20,000 bases of DNA from IMG/VR virus record IMGVR_UViG_3300019373_000295, one strand, 5' to 3'. The notes under the pieces were generated by a model. The model was not told the DNA's origin, did no database searches, and saw only the letters and a program-made list of their open reading frames with translations. This document shows positions 29 through 18,003 of this stretch, piece after piece; position 1 is the stretch's first letter; each line of letters starts with the position of its first letter. The stretch comes from an uncultured virus (IMG/VR IMGVR_UViG_3300019373_000295) (taxonomy: Duplodnaviria; Heunggongvirae; Uroviricota; Caudoviricetes). A program made the translations under genes and the position numbers.

Positions 29-66
29 CTCATATACTGTCGTGGGAGAGGCGATTTGTAAGGGGT
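29..66 (-). repeat. 38-bp repeat copy 1; putative phage-sigma-dependent promoter
   Basis: ctcatatactgtcgtgggagaggcgatttgtaaggggt is 37/38 identical to 12574-12611; both are intergenic, same orientation, and preceded on the minus strand by an A/T tract. Confidence 0.8.
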
Positions 67-1515: not shown

Positions 1516-1607
1516 TGTTGCTAATGTTGCAGTAGTTTTCTATTATAATAATAAATACACAATAAACATATATAGAGTAACCGATTCTATCTGCAACACC
1601 AGCAACA
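1516..1607. other. Putative replication origin: inverted iteron pairs around an AT-rich core
   Basis: TGTTGCTAATGTTGCAG (1516-1532) and CTGCAACACCAGCAACA (1591-1607) form a 15/17 inverted repeat flanking a very AT-rich 58-bp spacer, just downstream of the primase-helicase. Confidence 0.55.
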
Positions 1608-1669: not shown

Positions 1670-4141
1670 TTACTCTGTTTCACTGATGGGTACGAAGTCA
1701 TCTTCCGGTTCTTCGCCGACAACCCATATGATATCATTGACCATAGTGGTAGTGCAGGCACCTTCTTCATCTCTGGGTCTCCTGCGCTGATACACAAAGC
1801 CGGCCTGTTCCATCTTTTTGCGGAAATTGGCAGCGTTTTCGTACTTGAAGCCGTTTTCGGCGCACCAGTCCTTGTAACGGCTATAAACTGCCTGCGCTCT
1901 CAGTTCCTGCCCGATTTCCTTCTTCACACATTGAGAAGTGAACATCATAATACGATCAGACTGCTGACGATATTCCTTTGTTGCATTCTCAACAGAGTCA
2001 GGCATATCCAGACCTTCTGTCATATACAGACGAAAGCCCTCAAGACACCAGTTCAGTATACCGGATAAATTTTCGCTTCTGGCAAAGAACGACTTTAGGT
2101 CGATGTCACGTTCTTCAGCGGTGAAGTGGCGGTTGAACGGGATTATCTTGATACGGTCAGATTCAAACAGCGTCATATCCGAGATCTGCGGCAGATGGTT
2201 GGTATCAATAAACAGCTTGAACTGCGGTTTGAACTCGAAGGAATTCTCACGCAGGAAACGGGCGGTCAGGATATTGTTACCGGTCATCTGCTTGGTAAGG
2301 GATGCATCGATCTGCATGGACTTTTCCGGCTCAGAGACATTGACCATTCTTGCGCCGTTCAGACGCGCCACATCCTCGGACGGCCCGGAGGAATCCGCAA
2401 AGCCTTTCTTACTGAGCATATCCGGCTTTGCCGTTCTGCCGTACTCACCGAGAATGCGGAGAATGGTTTCCATTGTGGTACCCTTGCCGTTACGGGAAGT
2501 AGCACCGTAGAGAATGAACATACATTCAAGTCTTGTGTCACCCGACATTGCATAGCCGATTGCTTTCTGAAGATACCTGATTCTTCCCTTGTCGCCCTCC
2601 ATGACCTCGTCCATAAAAGACAGCCATCGGTCACAGACGGCATCCGGCACATAGTCAACTTCGGTCATCTTTGTGAGCATATCTGCCGGATCATGTGCTT
2701 TGAACTCGCCGGTGAGAAGATTGATCGTTCCGTTGTGGCAGTTAAAGAGAAATTTGTCACGATCAAAGGCAGACATATCAACTGTGACTGCCGGATCGGA
2801 AGCGGCGTCCTTTACCATGAGGTCACGGTATTTACGCTGATCCAGTTTCTGCACACGTTCAAGGAATCGTTTTCTGGTATCCTCCGATATAATTCTTGGA
2901 ACGAAAGCAAGCAGCGTATCACGGAAGTCTTTTGCCATTTCAGCAATCTTGATGTCATGCTGATCGGGACGCCAGACACGGCCGTCATAAATATACCAAC
3001 GGCCTCTTGTATCGTTCATCAGGATAATGCTGCGGAAGAAATCCACAAACATTCTGCCATTGCCGATCTGGAAGGATTCATAGCGGGGATTGGTATGCGG
3101 TGAAAGCTCATCGACCGTTGTAGAGAGAAAACGGTAATCAGGTGTAAAGGTGTATCCCTCTCGCTCCCTGCGATCACGCTCTTCCTGAATCGTGCTTGCA
3201 TCGAGATCTGTAAAGTCGAGAAGAACATCGTCCTCATCAGGCAAGCCGCTAACAGGACGATAGATCTCAGAGCATGAGGATACAGCGTTCCGGATCGTGA
3301 TCTCGCCATAGGTTGCATCGCCGGTTCGTCTGTCCCATTTGTCACGCATCAAGCCGCTGCTGCGGAAGATACGGTCGATTTGTTCTTCTACGCAGCCGCA
3401 CCAAAAGCAGAGCATAGACACAAACGCCATGTCTGCATCTGACTGAGAGTCGTATCCTTCCTCCCATCTGCCGTCATAGAGAGCCTTGAACTTATCACCG
3501 GATTTGGATTCCGATGCGTGTTTAATGACCTGTTCATCCGTGAAATATGACACAGGATTGCCTTTGAAAGCGGATGCGGCGCGGGTGCTGCGCTTCATGA
3601 ACGTATCAAGAGCCGTTTTGAGCGCATCATCGTCACGTTCTACAGTTCCTTCCCGGAACATATCTCCGGTCACAGTGACAAAGCGGTTAGTCGTTCCCGG
3701 CAGATAGACCTCCAGACCGTGCTTGCGGTTGTTGATGTAGTACACGGTCTTGTCATAAGCAAAGTCAGGAGAGAGCTTGAAAAAGCCGCGCAGTCCCGTG
3801 CCGGAGGGAGAACGTTCAAAATAAGCAGTTGAGAAGATACCGAGAATGGAAGCCGCCACATCGTTCAGGCTTCCGTCCTCACGGATACAGTGGTCAATAT
3901 CAATGGCACCGATGCCCTCGCTGACACGATAACCGATGCCGTCCCAGCCACCGATCGCATATGCCTTCATAGCGGTCTTGAAGTCGGCGAAGGTGGACGG
4001 ATCGTTGGTCTTTGCCATTGCTCCGGTCTTCGGGTTGTACGGCACCTTAGTCGGTCTGCCACTGCGCTTCTCAAGCTTCCATACGCAGAAGGATGCATTG
4101 TGTTTCAGTGCATCCGGGATATTTACAAAATTTACAGGCAT
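1670..4141 (-). CDS. Primase-polymerase / SF3 (P4/D5-type) helicase fusion, NrS-1 polymerase-like architecture
   Basis: N-terminal prim-pol motifs (GAIDIDHC, ERSPSGTGLR, RFVTVTG), helical-bundle segment (SQSDADM...IDRIFRSSGLMRDKWD), D5_N-like region (FNCHNGTINL), Walker A GATSRNGKGT, motif B VSE, motif C DTNHLP. Confidence 0.9.
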   Translation of the reverse strand: MPVNFVNIPDALKHNASFCVWKLEKRSGRPTKVPYNPKTGAMAKTNDPSTFADFKTAMKAYAIGGWDGIGYRVSEGIGAIDIDHCIREDGSLNDVAASILGIFSTAYFERSPSGTGLRGFFKLSPDFAYDKTVYYINNRKHGLEVYLPGTTNRFVTVTGDMFREGTVERDDDALKTALDTFMKRSTRAASAFKGNPVSYFTDEQVIKHASESKSGDKFKALYDGRWEEGYDSQSDADMAFVSMLCFWCGCVEEQIDRIFRSSGLMRDKWDRRTGDATYGEITIRNAVSSCSEIYRPVSGLPDEDDVLLDFTDLDASTIQEERDRREREGYTFTPDYRFLSTTVDELSPHTNPRYESFQIGNGRMFVDFFRSIILMNDTRGRWYIYDGRVWRPDQHDIKIAEMAKDFRDTLLAFVPRIISEDTRKRFLERVQKLDQRKYRDLMVKDAASDPAVTVDMSAFDRDKFLFNCHNGTINLLTGEFKAHDPADMLTKMTEVDYVPDAVCDRWLSFMDEVMEGDKGRIRYLQKAIGYAMSGDTRLECMFILYGATSRNGKGTTMETILRILGEYGRTAKPDMLSKKGFADSSGPSEDVARLNGARMVNVSEPEKSMQIDASLTKQMTGNNILTARFLRENSFEFKPQFKLFIDTNHLPQISDMTLFESDRIKIIPFNRHFTAEERDIDLKSFFARSENLSGILNWCLEGFRLYMTEGLDMPDSVENATKEYRQQSDRIMMFTSQCVKKEIGQELRAQAVYSRYKDWCAENGFKYENAANFRKKMEQAGFVYQRRRPRDEEGACTTTMVNDIIWVVGEEPEDDFVPISETE

Positions 4142-4617
4142 TCGGGATGTCTCCTTTCAAGGAAAAGCTGTGCAATGACAGCGGTTTCAATACGGTTCAT
4201 CGCATCGGCATCCGAGATATGCCCTGCATAGCTGCGGAGCGCATGCTTGCTGACAGTCGTAAGCTGCTCCGCAAGGATCATGGACGGATCCAGATGCTGA
4301 TGAATATCGGAAATACTGTCGGGGAACAGATGCGTATGGCACGGCAGCTCCGGCTTTTTCAAGTGCCGCGTCATGGGAATGATATTGACCGTGTCGGCGT
4401 GCGCATTGCCCATATCATTCGAGAGAATGATCACAGGACGAATGCCGCCCTGCACGCTGGAATCCGGATGACTGCCGAGATCCGCAAACCAGATGTCGCC
4501 GCGCTGCGGTTTGTGTTCAGCTGTGTGATGCTGCACCGGCGCAGTGATATATTTTCTCGGATCGAAACCGAGCCCTCTGTGGTATTCTGTTTTCAGGCGT
4601 TTGTTCTTACGCGCCAT
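4132..4617 (-). CDS. MazF/PemK-family endoribonuclease-like protein, no adjacent antitoxin
   Basis: RGDIWFADL...SVQGGIRPVIILSND...IIPMT...SMILAEQLTTVSK signature; ATG 4617 with GGAGGTGA RBS; 3' end overlaps the primase start. Confidence 0.85.
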   Translation of the reverse strand: MARKNKRLKTEYHRGLGFDPRKYITAPVQHHTAEHKPQRGDIWFADLGSHPDSSVQGGIRPVIILSNDMGNAHADTVNIIPMTRHLKKPELPCHTHLFPDSISDIHQHLDPSMILAEQLTTVSKHALRSYAGHISDADAMNRIETAVIAQLFLERRHPECL

Positions 4618-4713
4618 AGTTTTCACCTCCGTGGTCTGCGGCGTAACCGAATTGTCGCCGCTTTGCCGTCCTTCTGTCGTCAAATGACAGAAGATCATAC
4701 AGTCTGTATATTG

Positions 4714-12512: not shown

Positions 12513-12573
12513 ATACTTTTCCTTTCTGTGCGGCCTTGCGGCCAATGTATTATCGTGAGGAGCATCATGGCCT

Positions 12574-12611
12574 CTCATATACTGTCGTGGGAGAAGCGAT
12601 TTGTAAGGGGT
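12574..12611 (-). promoter_or_regulatory. 38-bp repeat copy 2; putative phage-sigma-dependent promoter of the replication operon
   Basis: Begins 1 bp after the sigma gene stop codon; 37/38 identical to 29-66. Confidence 0.7.
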
Positions 12612-12612
12612 C

Positions 12613-13317
12613 TCAGAAAAATTTTTTTGCCTTTGCCAGTGCATAACGCAGTCTCTCGTTGACCGACATCTTTGCGATGCCCAGCATTTCGGCGATCTCA
12701 TCCTGTGTCATGCAGTCACGGTAGTACAGGATAAACACCTCGCGCTGCTTCTCTGTCATATCCGCAAGCATCTCTTCTCTGGTCTCACGGCGCTCCACAG
12801 CATCCTGCGGATTCTCGCCAATGCGTCCGTCGTACCAGTTGAAGGCTCTACGGAAAGGGTCTGCCACTGCCAGTTCCATATCGCCGTCCTTATCCCCGTT
12901 GTCGGCGCTGTCATAATCTGTAGTATCCTTGCGGCTGCCGGTGCGGTTCATGCTGTTTGCCTCAATGCGGTGGTCGCCAATCAACGTCACTGCAAGGATC
13001 CACGGCTGTGTGGCGAGAAAGCCGTCCGGCAGTTCGTAGGACTCTCTGAAGCTTTCCTTTTCTGAATCCCTCAGCTTATTAAAATAGAAAGTGAAGTTTT
13101 TGCAGTACGGCAGCCACACAACGGTGCGTCCGGTGATATTCTGGTAGATTGCAAAGCCGTTGCTGAACAGTGTGCAGTCGTTTGTTTCTGCAATCGGTTC
13201 ACCGGCGGTCTCAAACAGCTCTTTCGGGGTAGGTGTCTTGCCGGACTTTTCAGCAAGATTGAGAATGGTGAGCAGTTCTCCGAGGGTAGTTCTATCTGTT
13301 ACAGTGATCGTATTCAT
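12613..13317 (-). CDS. Sigma-70 region-4 domain protein (phage sigma-like transcription factor)
   Basis: C-terminal MTEKQREVFILYYRDCMTQDEIAEMLGIAKMSVNERLRYA region-4 HTH; ATG 13317 with AAAGGA RBS. Confidence 0.85.
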   Translation of the reverse strand: MNTITVTDRTTLGELLTILNLAEKSGKTPTPKELFETAGEPIAETNDCTLFSNGFAIYQNITGRTVVWLPYCKNFTFYFNKLRDSEKESFRESYELPDGFLATQPWILAVTLIGDHRIEANSMNRTGSRKDTTDYDSADNGDKDGDMELAVADPFRRAFNWYDGRIGENPQDAVERRETREEMLADMTEKQREVFILYYRDCMTQDEIAEMLGIAKMSVNERLRYALAKAKKFF

Positions 13318-13320
13318 AGT

Positions 13321-13824
13321 CGTTCCTTTCTGCAAGGAACGCACTCGCGGCAAATGCTCCTACTGCGTAAAAGGCACGCAGGCAGACGATGTCCACACGG
13401 AAATTCTTTCATGATACCTGTTTCGGTCAATACTGACCGCAGGCATGATTTTCCGTTATGAGCATCTGTCCGCCAATGCGCGCCTTGACTAACAAATGTG
13501 ATTTTTCTATGCTTCGGCATAAAAATAGCCGGATGCATACAGAGGGAGAACATACAGCTTGATCTGCCGTCCACAGGGTATAGCTATGGCCTAGAGACTT
13601 TTGCTGTATGAACGCCCGCCTACCGTATGCATCCGGCAGCGAGGTGTTCAGCAAGGTATTCATTCGGCAACCTCCGAAAAAGTTGCACAAATCCGCTTTC
13701 CGGAACTTGACATAGCGGTAACCATTGTGGATCCGCTTTCAAGCCGGTTCCCGGAAATCATCGAATCTATGACGTTTCCGATGAACGCCCTGCTCTATTG
13801 TGTTCGGGAGTTTGTCCCCCCTAC
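13321..13824 (-). ncRNA. Long structured 5' leader / candidate cis-regulatory RNA of the sigma gene
   Basis: Several long nested inverted repeats (13321-13341, 13371-13486, 13528-13637, ~13697-13790), one followed by a U tract on the minus strand. Confidence 0.6.
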
Positions 13825-13825
13825 A

Positions 13826-13859
13826 ATTATAGTTTAACATATATTTTCCGGCCTGTAAG
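13826..13859 (-). promoter_or_regulatory. Putative sigmaA promoter for the leader-sigma transcript
   Basis: Minus strand CTTACA-17 nt-TAAACT with extended TG, plus an overlapping TATAAT at 13826-13831. Confidence 0.55.
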
Positions 13860-13860
13860 C

Positions 13861-14017
13861 CAATCAACGGGGTTGCCGAATAAAACGGCGATTCTGCGTG
13901 CTTTTTTGAAAATCATCGAAAAGTGTCCATGTCAGGTGGACACATTCATTGCGAAAATGCCGATTTTACGTCAGTGATATTTCTGTTGTATTTTTATTCT
14001 GACAACCAAACAGGTTG
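13861..14017. promoter_or_regulatory. Putative operator palindromes
   Basis: CAATC-N5-GGTTG (13861-13875), CAACC-N5-GGTTG (14003-14017) and GTGTCCA-N7-TGGACAC (13923-13943). Confidence 0.5.
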
Positions 14018-14102
14018 CAGAATCGTGCAATAAAATTTTCAAATCGTCATTTTGCACAATGGAAACGATCCGTTTTTCCGCATCTCAACCGCAGAAGGGC
14101 AT

Positions 14103-14134
14103 AAAAAAGACCAGCGGTCATATAACCGCCGGTC
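14103..14134 (-). terminator. Rho-independent terminator of the peptidase-HTH gene
   Basis: Minus strand GACCGGCGGT-TATATG-ACCGCTGGTC-TTTTTT, 10 nt after the stop codon. Confidence 0.8.
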
Positions 14135-14144
14135 ATCATTATTA

Positions 14145-16598
14145 TCATTCTTCCTCTATTCCGTACCTTCTTCTTAGCTGGCTCTGTGTCTGTGAATCGA
14201 AGTCGAGCATATCCAGTTCAAACTGTCTGCCGTCATTCAGTTTTTTGAAGCCCTGCTCCGTAAGGATATCGTTGCCGCGCTCGATCGTCATATTTCTGTC
14301 GCTCAGCAGATGCAGATAGATCGGGTCTGCACCGTAATAGCTGAGATGCAGTCCTGCCAGCTCGATCAGGCGAAGGCTGACGCCGATATCCAGTTTCAGG
14401 CTGATACAGATACCGACAACATGACGCTTCAGCATGATCTCCCTTTTCAGCCATTTCTGAAACGCCTGCCGCGATACGCCCATGTGGGATGCCAGTGTTG
14501 TCTGAGAAACACCCAGTTCATCGAGCACCATCTGAAGTGCGTCATGGAACGTGCCGTGAAGTGCGCCTGCCAGTGCGCCCCAACGTGCCGCACTTTCAGA
14601 AAATGCGTTGTTTTCAGCCTGATAGCCTTCCTCTCCGGGTTCACTGACAAGCTCCACTGTATTATATTTTCCGTTGCCGTTTTTCTTGGTACGCGCCGCA
14701 GAACCGCCTGCGTATTGGAATGTGATCTTCCTGCGTTTCGGTCTGAACGCCAGACAGCATTCATCAATGTGTGCATGGGCATATTCTGTCAGCCGCTGCA
14801 TCCCATTGGGTGCGGTTTCAATATAGCGGGAATCGTTGAGAACGTAGTGTCCCTCCAGATAGACATATCTGCCGCTGAGCAGCACGCTTGCAAATCGCTC
14901 TGAGGAGCTGATGAGTGCGATCGCATCCTGCCTGTCGATCGTGTATATCACATTGCTGTACCATACGCCGCTGGCAGCATGATCCGGCACCCGCTCCTTA
15001 TTGCCGATGAAGTTCCAGATTCCCTCAACCTCGGTGATTCCGATCTCCTTCATGCGAATCTTCGTCATCTGCATGGAGGCACCGTATATTTTGGTCAGGA
15101 TACCGAGCATCCACATGAGTGCGCGGGGTGATCTGTCATTCCCGGTGCGTTCAAACATGCGCTCACACTCATTGCAGAAAGTTCCTTCCTCCATCATCAC
15201 ATATGCAGTGAGCTTCTCGTCCTGCTTTTCCATTTCAGCGATCAGTTCCATTCCATCATACTGAACGTCCTGTTCTTTTCTCAGCCAACTGCTCGTTCTG
15301 TCGATGAAATTGTAACTCGGTACGCCCGCCATCAGCTGCAGCATAAAGAACGGCAGATCCACATACACATGGACACACTCGTGAATGATGGTTGCCAAAA
15401 CATCTGAAGGCCGCAGCATCTCATCCAGATTGATGATGATATCTCCGGCCTTGCATTTGAGAAGATCGCCGCTGCTGTCCGGTATTTCCATATCCGAAAA
15501 GATGATGCGGCCCTTTATACCCTCTCCTTTTCCAAGATGCTCCTTGCGCAGACGCAGCTTCATGCGGCTGTATCGCTTTTTCAGCCATCTGCTCAGTCTC
15601 TGCACCAGAACCTCACCGTCAATTTTAGTCGGTGCTTTCAGTGCTTCGGGATAAATATCCTTCAGCATTTTTGCAGCAAGTGCCGGAAAATCCCTGTATG
15701 AAATATTCGGCCTGAGTATCTTGTTGGTCGGCCATGTCTGCTGCCGCGTGATCGCGTCCTCCGGAAAATACTGAACGGGTGCCAGTATCGGCCCGCTGCA
15801 GGTCTTCTGACCGTTCCTCCCGTAAAGATCGAAGGTGTATCGAAAACGATAATCGATTGTCCTGTGAGAATCCCGATACACATACAGCGTTTGTTCACCG
15901 CCGCCCTGCGCCATCGGTACTTTCAGCGTAAAATCACCGCTGACGATCACATCCACGATGAAGTTGTCCAGTCTCTGTTCCCACGAGCTTTCCACACGCT
16001 TCACGCAGCAGCCATCGTAGCTGACAAGAACGGCATCTGTGATATCGAGTGCGTTTACAATATCCGAAGGACAGGTGTCTGTCAGGTACCGGAGCGCTTC
16101 TCCGAAGTCCTCATGCAGGTTATTCTGCAGCACATCCAAGACTGTATGGACTCTGCGGGTGCTGTCTGCTTCAATATTGATATCCGGTGTAGATGTTGGC
16201 ATCATCACAAGTGAACGTCTGCCGTTCATCTCCACTACGGTCGAGGTATATCCCTCACTGTAACCGAGATTCAGCCCTCTGCTGGGCGGTGTGTAAAGCC
16301 CTGCAATGCCGAAACCGCTCATGCCGCTATGGAGCGCATAAAAGCATTCAAGCTCTTCGCGTTCTTGCGGTGTACAGGTACGGCGGTAATAATCAAATTC
16401 CTCCCTTGTGACGTACATTCCGATCGCCATTCTGATGCGGATGTTTTCTCTGTTCATGCGCGGCTTTTGCTTCGAGCTGCGTTTGCGCTTCTGTTTTGCC
16501 TTTTCTTCCTGCTCGATGATATCCAGTATATCCGGATACCGATAGTCATCCGTCCTTCCGTCCAAGTTCTCGAACCAGTAATAATCACTTGATCTCAT
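14145..16598 (-). CDS. Large ImmA/IrrE-like zinc metallopeptidase domain + C-terminal XRE HTH regulator (~817 aa)
   Basis: TIIHECVH HEXXH with downstream E (EKQDEKLTAYVMM), preceded by IKGRIIF...GDIIIN; C-terminal LGVSQTTLASHMGVSRQAFQKWL HTH; start set to ATG 16598 with AGGGGG RBS (uncertain). Confidence 0.75.
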   Translation of the reverse strand: MRSSDYYWFENLDGRTDDYRYPDILDIIEQEEKAKQKRKRSSKQKPRMNRENIRIRMAIGMYVTREEFDYYRRTCTPQEREELECFYALHSGMSGFGIAGLYTPPSRGLNLGYSEGYTSTVVEMNGRRSLVMMPTSTPDINIEADSTRRVHTVLDVLQNNLHEDFGEALRYLTDTCPSDIVNALDITDAVLVSYDGCCVKRVESSWEQRLDNFIVDVIVSGDFTLKVPMAQGGGEQTLYVYRDSHRTIDYRFRYTFDLYGRNGQKTCSGPILAPVQYFPEDAITRQQTWPTNKILRPNISYRDFPALAAKMLKDIYPEALKAPTKIDGEVLVQRLSRWLKKRYSRMKLRLRKEHLGKGEGIKGRIIFSDMEIPDSSGDLLKCKAGDIIINLDEMLRPSDVLATIIHECVHVYVDLPFFMLQLMAGVPSYNFIDRTSSWLRKEQDVQYDGMELIAEMEKQDEKLTAYVMMEEGTFCNECERMFERTGNDRSPRALMWMLGILTKIYGASMQMTKIRMKEIGITEVEGIWNFIGNKERVPDHAASGVWYSNVIYTIDRQDAIALISSSERFASVLLSGRYVYLEGHYVLNDSRYIETAPNGMQRLTEYAHAHIDECCLAFRPKRRKITFQYAGGSAARTKKNGNGKYNTVELVSEPGEEGYQAENNAFSESAARWGALAGALHGTFHDALQMVLDELGVSQTTLASHMGVSRQAFQKWLKREIMLKRHVVGICISLKLDIGVSLRLIELAGLHLSYYGADPIYLHLLSDRNMTIERGNDILTEQGFKKLNDGRQFELDMLDFDSQTQSQLRRRYGIEEE

Positions 16599-16777
16599 AT
16601 ATTCCCCCTGTTTACTGTTATGATCCTGTGTCTCCCGATACATTCTCTTGTTCTGCACATCTGTAGTTTTAACAGCAGTAAATACCTCTGGCGAAGGCGG
16701 GGCTGCAAACATAAGGCTTACGAAGTGCGGATATCTGTATAAGTCATTAAGCCTGACCAAGCTGCCGCATTCATACA

Positions 16778-16790
16778 GCACAAACGTTCG
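16778..16790 (-). promoter_or_regulatory. Probable LexA (SOS/Cheo) box
   Basis: Minus strand CGAAC-GTTT-GTGC versus Firmicutes GAAC-N4-GTTC (1 mismatch), just downstream of the leftward -10. Confidence 0.5.
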
Positions 16791-17034: not shown

Positions 17035-18003
17035 ATGAGTACCGATGATAAGAAGGTCAAACGAACAACAAGTAAAGTGACACGAGCCGGAGCGAATGCC
17101 GTTCCCCAGAAAGCGGCAAATGCGGGGCTGACAACAAATGCGCAGCTTCATATGACTGATTCTGTCATCGGGAAGGCTTCTGATGAGCGTACTGCTGAAT
17201 CTGTCAGATTCGGGCCTGCGATCAAGGCATTCAGAGCAAAGGCAGGGCTCTCACAGGCAGAACTTGCTGATATCGTTCATGTCAGCCGCAATACGGTCGT
17301 GAAGTGGGAAAATGACGGATACAAGCCAGATCATGACACGATCGTTGAATTGTGTAAAATTCTCGGTATGTCGCTGGATGACCTTTACGGCATTGCGACA
17401 ACTGCGGTGACACAGCAGGAGCTGAAGATGCTGCGGGAATACCGCCTCATCAGTCCTGTCGGGCAGAAGGTCATCGAAAAAATGATTTTTCATATGCTTG
17501 ATGAGGAGCTGAAAGCGAAGGACGAACTGATGAAAGCATCCTTTGCACTGTTCGAGACACCCTGTACAAGAGCAGCGGCTGGCTCCGGTACCCCCTACTC
17601 CGATGAGGAAATGACATACTGCTTTATGAGGAAAACCGACAGGAACCGTCTTGCAGATGCTGTGGTCGGTGTTGTCGGAGACAGTATGCTGCCAGTCTAC
17701 CACGACGGTGACAGTGTCTACATTGAATACTGCGAGGACGCTTATCCAGGAGAGGATGTGGTCTGCAACACACCAGATGGTCTGATCATCAAGCGGCTTT
17801 CCGCCGACCACAGGCTGTTCTCTGTGAATCCGAAGATTCCGTACTCTGAAAAGGATGATGGATATACGATTCAGATCGTGGGGCGTGTATTGGGCATTGC
17901 AGAGACATCCGACTTCCCGGCTGACGGAGAGGATAAGATTCTGGAAAATTTGTTTGACAGAGAGATTGGTCTGTTCAAGCAGGAACACCATATGTATGAC
18001 TGA
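17035..18003 (+). CDS. CI/LexA-like repressor: XRE HTH + S24 peptidase
   Basis: [29 protein letters not shown] cleavage site, catalytic Ser in GDSM and Lys in IIKRL; GGAGGA RBS. Confidence 0.9.

Follow-up and report, generated by a model that had tools for sequence, protein, structure and literature searches.

The stretch of DNA analysed here (the window) comprises 20,000 nucleotides inside a 95.7-kb virus record, which contains a whole siphovirus-type prophage. On the minus strand, a 504-nt leader separates a predicted promoter from the gene for a phage sigma-like protein. The leader is framed by the following features:

29..66, minus strand: second copy (37/38) of the 38-nt box below, behind metK and before the packaging, head and tail genes (blastn and ORF map)
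12574..12611, minus strand: 38-nt box immediately 3' of the sigma gene, a promoter that the sigma-like protein is predicted to use for the replication genes
12613..13317, minus strand: gene for the phage sigma-like protein (234 aa), with an N-terminal domain without family, an acidic linker and a sigma-70 region 4
13831..13859, minus strand: predicted host sigma-A promoter, called by eye (-35 at 13859-13854, extended -10 at 13839-13831)
14134-14109, minus strand: terminator-like site between the 878-aa gene and the leader
14145-16781, minus strand: gene for an 878-aa protein, its 3' end at 14145 lying directly upstream of the leader promoter
17035-18003: CI-like repressor with HTH_3 and S24 domains (domain search)

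According to Pfam, the genes 3' of the sigma gene on the minus strand are, in order, a DUF2800 nuclease, SSB, DNA polymerase A, DUF932, an SNF2 helicase, a PemK-like gene, primase and SAM synthetase; gene names in the late region were assigned by eye. Relatives of the sigma gene occur mainly in records of Ruminococcus and other Oscillospiraceae; one locus, L037, belongs to Ruminococcus flavefaciens 007c. The PemK/MazF-like gene (4132-4698, minus strand) sits in the replication operon between the helicase and primase genes, with no adjacent antitoxin recognised, and a 17-bp long-range stem (1519-1604, minus strand), matched by chance to mir-17 and possibly a structured element, lies between the primase gene and the small gene next to it. 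The 878-aa protein belongs to phrog_4031 and carries a C-terminal HTH; its function is without assignment, and it may be a candidate regulator.

The predicted leader promoter has 4/6 and 4/6 matches together with the extended -10, scores below the threshold of the promoter scanner and would place the start of transcription at ~13825. It is present in all six rows of alignment A7, most relatives having other promoters instead. The initial annotation had described a folded RNA between such a promoter and the start codon of the sigma gene; this arrangement stands, with the ATG corrected to 13317-13315 and the promoter taken as a by-eye call at 13859-13831. An antisense sigma-A promoter listed by the scanner (13485-13513, plus strand) was discarded, its -10 being lost in relatives (by eye). 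Autoregulation by the sigma-like protein at the leader promoter, suggested by the resemblance of the -35 to the window's sigma box, was dropped because the L004 class has an identical -35 and a sigma with another helix and box.

Two RNA libraries from two studies contain contigs identical to 13195-13781 and 13360-13810, which indicates presence only, with DNA carry-over possible and no strand, start or level information in the contigs. Positions 13840-14073 have no RNA-contig cover in four runs and contig depths differ, neither of which amounts to expression, a start or a level. RNA contigs from the other box site map onto 12570-12611.

Folding and conservation of the leader

The leader is densely folded on the minus strand (-213.7 kcal/mol, z -9.56, 0/100 shuffles as good), confirming the original observation; the plus strand of the 504-nt interval has z -5.65. 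The most strongly folded segments in a sliding scan are 13351-13500 (z -8.2) and 13501-13650 (z -7.4). Both long structures that had been proposed are present. The hairpin with its base at 13528-13540/13625-13637 and its inner stem at 13551-13558/13603-13610 consists of perfect inverted repeats and is followed directly 3' on the minus strand by a U-rich run; the fold of 13518-13637 has -56.5 kcal/mol (z -6.8) on the minus strand and -46.6 (z -4.4) on the plus strand. The rod at 13371-13486 (minus -62.0, z -8.2; plus -52.8, z -6.3) has an outer-stem mismatch that becomes a G-U pair on the minus strand only, and the hairpin claimed over the ribosome-binding site is likewise found (13318-13345, z -4.5). 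The structures listed in the initial annotation are thus real, but the list lacked two early hairpins, termed P0 here, and an alternative fold that frees the ribosome site (the ON fold).

Overlapping, alternative stems had also been proposed further upstream. The region 13645-13824 does fold (z -5.0), and the strand near 13757-13748 changes partners when 13690-13790 is folded alone, but these stems occur in few relatives and form a domain that is specific to the lineage:

13651..13824, minus strand: lineage-specific 5' domain (z -4.95)

In the relative L004 this domain has z -2.3, and only its closing stem and flanking hairpins are common to six sequences, five of which are near-copies. With its marker in only 6/60 aligned loci, it was rejected as part of the conserved RNA, as was a small hairpin (13503-13525) that could mask a U-tract and is missing in loci with a 14-nt gap.

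Conservation spans only the 3' 330 nt (13650-13315, from about 13650 to the ATG), among Ruminococcus-type prophages, whereas promoters and the upstream stem region differ by lineage. Hence the proposed RNA of about 500 nt holds as a structured leader, but its conserved unit is about 330 nt long and made up of two modules, A (the terminator-like hairpin) and B (from the rod to the ATG):

13609..13650, minus strand: P0-A, hairpin predicted to form first in module A, with an 8-nt loop (13633-13626) containing a self-complementary hexamer
13519..13637, minus strand: long rod and U-tract of module A, predicted intrinsic terminator (inner-stem covariation, U-tract)
13463..13498, minus strand: P0-B, hairpin predicted to form first in module B, with an 8-nt loop (13484-13477) whose hexamer differs from that of A
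13369..13486, minus strand: OFF rod of module B, with 5' arm X (13486-13456) paired to proximal Y1 (13394-13371) and a short U run
13333..13359, minus strand: distal partner Y2 (13359-13347) and anti-SD (13343-13333), pairing with arm X in the ON fold
13318..13345, minus strand: hairpin that hides the ribosome site (SD 13329-13324) in the OFF fold, 97.8% paired

Homologous loci were gathered through searches with the sigma protein and DNA patterns for both modules, giving an alignment of 85 distinct module B sequences (A2) and one of 64 distinct module A sequences (A3), from which 10 further module A copies were left out by the extraction rule. The structure is kept with covariation in these homologues, as the regulatory interpretation had predicted: apical parts are free to vary in length and sequence while the stems are retained, and two-sided changes affect 6/8 pairs of the inner stem of module A and 16/17 of the inner rod of module B, above both shuffles and slid controls. 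Since the sequences are related, covarying cells are not independent events, and the phages compared are mosaic, with recombination likely.

The module B pattern was found at 92 metagenome loci, with a sigma match behind 75, the end of the sequence behind 14 and an interruption in three (L071, L111 and L126). Modules A and B are 14-63 nt apart in most loci and 0.5-1.3 kb apart elsewhere, through insertion of a DUF7768 gene, sometimes together with a second sigma-like gene. This insertion hot spot (L011, L018, L024, L025, L045, L066, L094, L100) carries the DUF7768 gene, a nucleoside 2-deoxyribosyltransferase by PHROG that is sometimes fused to, or precedes, a domain like the sigma N-terminus or another complete sigma paralogue that lacks module B. 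At L057 (5749-6056), module B without A, a broken sigma gene and a host-like flank mark the edge of a decayed prophage.

A distant blastn search with 13300-14100 gave no match in the annotated phage collection. The 16-nt P0-A pattern alone had 41 viral matches and, among the matches listed, 20 new contigs, of which L200, L204 and L220 contain true modules and the others look like chance. In the genome samples, the sigma profile was found in 5/301 and 1/301 genomes; model R1 matched 7/151, convincingly only in G001 and G625. At positions 2001-2016 of L217 and L230, the upper hairpin of P0-A stands alone immediately upstream of another phage gene's SD, through chance or reuse.

Module A as a predicted terminator

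Module A has the GC-rich stem (the 13-bp base) and directly adjoining U-tract of an intrinsic terminator, features that are weak in module B. At least five T occur in the next 8 nt in all 64 sequences, the basal stem is 96% paired and the inner stem covaries. P0-A (-20.7 kcal/mol, z -4.0), the predicted fold of leader prefixes ending at 13609-13545, overlaps the 5' arm of this terminator and, in the predicted folds, excludes its base; its covariation is weak. The lower stem is 80% paired, with 243/500 shuffles as high, and the upper stem has no two-sided change among module A sequences. The loop core is unpaired (at least 0.95) in 61/64 fragments. The loop hexamer, which is AU-rich and forms a weak self-duplex (-4.7 kcal), is invariant in A3, partly as a result of the extraction rule, and is retained on a different stem in L190.

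Module B as a predicted translational switch

Arm X of module B is complementary to Y1 and, alternatively, to Y2 plus the anti-SD, such that two mutually exclusive, conserved folds are predicted to hide or free the SD. Wobble or compensatory changes maintain both across the 85 sequences. Pairing in the OFF structure reaches 88.8%, and 20/54 of its pairs have two-sided changes; the ON helices are paired in 98.9% and 98.5% of cells, showing just one two-sided pair because they are nearly invariant. Column 20 changes together with its partners in the P0 loop, OFF and ON folds in 8, 6 and 8 sequences respectively.

Folding energies were scored for 80/85 module B sequences, the motif search having failed in the other five. 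The predicted cost of freeing the SD has a median of 1.25 kcal/mol (2.6 kcal in the window), with X:Y1 preferred in 43 sequences and X:Y2 in 37. When Y1 is blocked, X pairs with Y2 in 80/80 and the SD is open (P > 0.5) in 58/80; when Y2 is blocked, the SD is open in 0/80. Prefix folding passes unaided from P0 to the rod, and the ON fold appears just before completion of the SD hairpin. Because its U run is weak (4 T in 8 nt in 37/85), module B would be mainly translational in effect.

Coding of a leader peptide was rejected for both modules: the ORF from the invariant ATG of module B runs for 5-57 codons, in frames split 26/30/29 of 85 relative to the sigma gene, and the corresponding ATG of module A is altered in the window. 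Readings of the conserved words as SOS boxes or toxin cleavage sites were abandoned as well, these not being kept across sequences (by eye).

Self-complementary loops of the P0 hairpins

Each P0 is the predicted fold until its 3' arm appears and excludes both long folds. P0-B (z -3.6) is 99.8% paired over 13 pairs in the 85 sequences, an invariance that is partly built in because the search pattern fixed most of the hairpin; the pattern left free a joint change from G-C to A-U, which is seen in 11 sequences. The P0-B hexamer is self-complementary in 84/85, with a two-sided change in eight. On a tree built without the columns concerned, the 11 stem-change rows occupy two places and the eight loop-change rows two or more (read from the drawing), so these compensatory changes represent few events, each change occurring in only about two places.

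In both modules the loop consists of a self-complementary hexamer between two unpaired purines, and this exposed hexamer is kept through sequence change. Four different hexamers occur on four stems (A, B, the L041 class, L163, L050, L237 and L190), and a fifth self-complementary hexamer is present in a looser analogue in L256 and L258. The list from distant leaders is a selected one, since the scripts searched for palindromes, and L048 and L263 depart from the pattern. Two of the hexamers probably match those of HIV-1 subtypes. Co-folding of P0 copies gains 9.7 and 17.1 kcal, as expected of any such hairpin and not evidence of dimers.

The sigma-like protein and its boxes

The sigma-70 region 4 of the gated protein spans residues 183-230 (Pfam PF08281/PF04545). 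Its structural model (pLDDT 65) gives fold matches to region 4 only, none at E ≤ 0.001. The N-terminal domain has no family in Pfam or PHROGs and no fold match at E ≤ 0.001; its best match in the Atlas is an unnamed cluster (0.90).

The recognition helix (12613-12720 in the window) is hypervariable among proteins that are 85-90% identical, and six helix types have their own boxes. By eye, in 60 aligned loci, a shared recognition helix corresponds to a shared upstream part of the box, in 9/9 cases for the window's type and in 10/10, 9/9, 6/6, 4/4 and 4/4 for the five others. This correspondence crosses N-terminal lineages, and the downstream part of the box tracks the type of N-terminal domain. 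Covariation between helix and box is expected of a phage sigma factor with swapped promoter specificity and hence supports the idea of a role in lytic commitment. Judged from these sequences, the product of the gated gene appears to be a genuine phage sigma factor and, taking into account the repeated box, the one serving the phage's lytic genes, as had been proposed. The family appears to combine cassette-like swaps of specificity with an unfamiliar substitute for region 2, and a two-domain sigma in which helix and promoter specificity are exchanged among close relatives is of interest in its own right.

Single-module and tandem leaders elsewhere

More distant sigma genes, whose products are about 55-59% identical in five cases and 41% in L176, are preceded by leaders of different sequence with a single module (L049, L160, L162, L176, L163 and L050). 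In 6/6, the leader's own 5' arm pairs with the stretch before the SD in an SD-free fold, at a predicted cost of 7.4, 0, 1.5, 0, 0 and 3.1 kcal respectively. All three folds are retained by these leaders in different sequence, which makes them the best independent support for the modelled two-way switch. A and B are therefore paralogues that descend from a single ancestral switch. Two further phage sigma families likewise have module A in front of them, and tandem modules recur in L237 ahead of an unrelated sigma family. No recognisable module A or B is present at L161, L166, L168, L178, L191-L194, L239, L255, L259 or L264.

A model for the leader and its alternatives

The reading preferred here, with a probability of roughly 0.65, is that the prophage holds back its own sigma factor by means of an RNA switch that acts in cis, has three states and is present in two copies. 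The 5' arm of each module would fold first into P0, leaving the loop exposed. By default P0 would give way to the rod, since its loop offers the 3' arm a point of entry; the rod of module A would then act as an intrinsic terminator, and with that of module B formed, the anti-SD would be available to mask the ribosome site (OFF). Were the loop held during the passage of polymerase, module A would be read through and the arm of module B would pair with Y2 and the anti-SD, freeing the ribosome site (ON). The sigma factor so made would activate the boxes ahead of the replication genes and the late genes. The attenuator-like reading of the initial annotation agrees with these predicted folds, which close or free the ribosome site, and its interpretation of the interval as a regulatory leader is supported. 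The leader may thus be how a prophage of a gut bacterium decides to wake up.

Several holders of the loop can be envisaged. Loop-loop kissing with a second leader RNA is tentatively put first, because the sequence of the loop varies while its symmetry is kept. A protein, favoured by the fact that A's loop stays unchanged on different stems and forms a weak AU-rich duplex, is a possible but rather doubtful holder; that folding kinetics suffice with no holder at all is considered somewhat unlikely, and some other holder improbable. One elaboration, a speculative one that is more probably wrong than right by a wide measure, is that the leader counts itself, nascent copies kissing via their loops and so blocking the terminator and the OFF rod. 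If true, sigma synthesis would require promoter firing or genome copy number to exceed a threshold, the different hexamers of tandem modules (in the window and, independently, L237) would steepen the response, and dimerisation-triggered antitermination and translation control would act in the lysis-lysogeny decision of a broad range of Firmicutes prophages, possibly including those with the DUF2800 RNA discussed below.

The unaided prefix folding from P0 to the rod, with the ON fold arising just before the SD hairpin is complete, and the near-isoenergetic OFF and ON folds would also suit a timer free of trans input, in which P0 just delays the rod, a fixed fraction of transcripts leaks past module A and B slowly refolds to ON. 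Induction would then be set at the promoter, for which a CI-like repressor (17035-18003) with the HTH_3 and S24 domains is present. This reading is nevertheless thought unlikely, leaving unexplained both the self-complementarity of the loop in several different sequences and the occurrence of module A's loop on a different stem in L190. Alternatively, a dimeric regulator might bind the P0 stretches as DNA operators, with the long hairpins serving as plain terminators: each P0 is an 18-bp near-palindrome with a common spaced consensus, P0 lies at the predicted start site in L046, and template switching in inverted repeats can produce two-sided changes without selection on RNA. Yet in both modules an unpaired purine stands on either side of the hexamer, most departures from the palindrome are G-U compatible, the loops of L050 and L237 are off-centre, and the conserved ON pairing with the anti-SD is left unaccounted for, making this very improbable.

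Least likely of all is that module A yields a small RNA resembling P4 CI or P1 c4, whose arm X' targets module B in trans. This arm resembles X and can pair with Y1 (median -18.2 kcal) or Y2 (-16.4), and the terminator of A could give an RNA of ~120-300 nt; against this, X' outcompetes X on Y1 in only 23/51 combinations and on Y2 in 0/51. Cognate X':Y1 pairs (-18.62) are no better than permuted ones (-18.73, with 66% of permutations as good), cognate X':Y2 pairs are worse than permuted (51 distinct combinations), and X' is already accounted for as the lower stem of P0-A and is a cis arm in single-module loci. With the failure of this test of the A and B arms, a processed RNA acting in trans finds no support.

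Comparison with known regulatory RNAs

Going by the modelled folds, the leader would combine the action of a terminator/antiterminator with that of a translational switch. In the BglG/SacY RAT, ANTAR and HutP attenuators, a protein holds an early hairpin that shares sequence with a terminator's 5' arm, so that the two cannot form together. The early hairpins of the leader share this overlap and exclusion, but its loops vary while remaining self-complementary, a third fold opens the ribosome site and the arrangement is duplicated. The P0 hairpins have single 8-nt loops, as opposed to the dual hairpin of ANTAR targets, and there is no ANTAR or RAT motif from Rfam in the window, nor any ANTAR or CAT domain among its 19 proteins. 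Translational riboswitch platforms have near-isoenergetic folds in which an anti-SD pairs with the SD or with an upstream arm. The leader resembles them in both respects, but seems to have no aptamer-like conserved unpaired core: its invariant bases pair in one of the three folds, its apical parts vary in length and sequence, and no Rfam aptamer is found in the window. The P4 CI, N15 CA and P1 c4 RNAs are structured leaders of early operons with repeated complementary segments, and RNAs of the P4 CI and P1 c4 type are processed by RNase P to a stable small RNA. The early position, structure and repeated complementary segments are common to the leader, which differs from these RNAs in showing no co-evolution of the candidate small RNA and its target, in the phylum of its host and in gating a sigma factor.

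According to PMC4872101, palindromic hairpin loops trigger retroviral dimerisation, not every palindromic loop dimerises, and strong kissers are GC-rich. The leader is like retroviral dimer-initiation loops in having a self-complementary hexamer with flanking purines in a hairpin loop, and unlike them in that the loop doubles as the toehold for a putative terminator or translation switch of a phage leader, dimerisation is a candidate property and the hexamer of A is AU-rich.

No match to the window was found at the gathering threshold in Rfam 15, which includes RF02960, nor any in 13200-14200 at E ≤ 5, so the structure is not an Rfam family; three matches elsewhere in the window are due to chance. 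The element is not described in the titles and opening lines of abstracts that were covered, and its motifs have no match in 6/9 supplementary files of PMC10690425; the candidate lists in the supplement of PMC5737381 and in the three large files of PMC10690425 may contain it. Within this scope the leader is an undescribed RNA outside Rfam, and represents a widespread family of cis-regulatory RNAs at an apparent master switch of temperate phages of Clostridia and Ruminococcus. The proposed mechanism of three folds is concrete and could be tested with few point mutants. Should the input prove to be the palindromic loops, the leader would exemplify natural gene control by RNA self-dimerisation, of which no case was found in the literature searched, and would supply an orthogonal set of parts.

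Relationship to the DUF2800 RNA and other leaders

The nearest known element by position and host range is the orphan DUF2800 RNA (RF02960), a cis-regulatory RNA of unknown function that, like the leader, precedes sigma-70 region 4 genes in related Firmicutes prophages. It was found ahead of other phage genes of this kind at three sites:

L204 1776-1918, minus strand: DUF2800 RNA
L239 1588-1737: DUF2800 RNA
L265 109-269: DUF2800 RNA

In L204 it follows module A directly, with a predicted SD-freeing cost of 9 kcal. The sequence and consensus structure of the DUF2800 RNA differ from those of the leader, such that it fills the place of module B but is not module B; the first loop of its consensus also has a self-complementary hexamer. 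The leader thereby provides context and a testable idea for this orphan RNA.

Another type of leader, of unrelated sequence and ahead of a different sigma family, is present in L256 and L258 (~1610-1800), L238 and L263. Its layout is similar, with a 5' hairpin bearing a palindromic loop, a rod with a U run and an arm complementary to the stretch before the SD. Two further RNAs from Rfam lie close to sigma genes: a drum RNA at 3018-3131 of L166, downstream of a related sigma gene, and a gut-2 RNA at 990-1037 of L176, upstream of another sigma gene.
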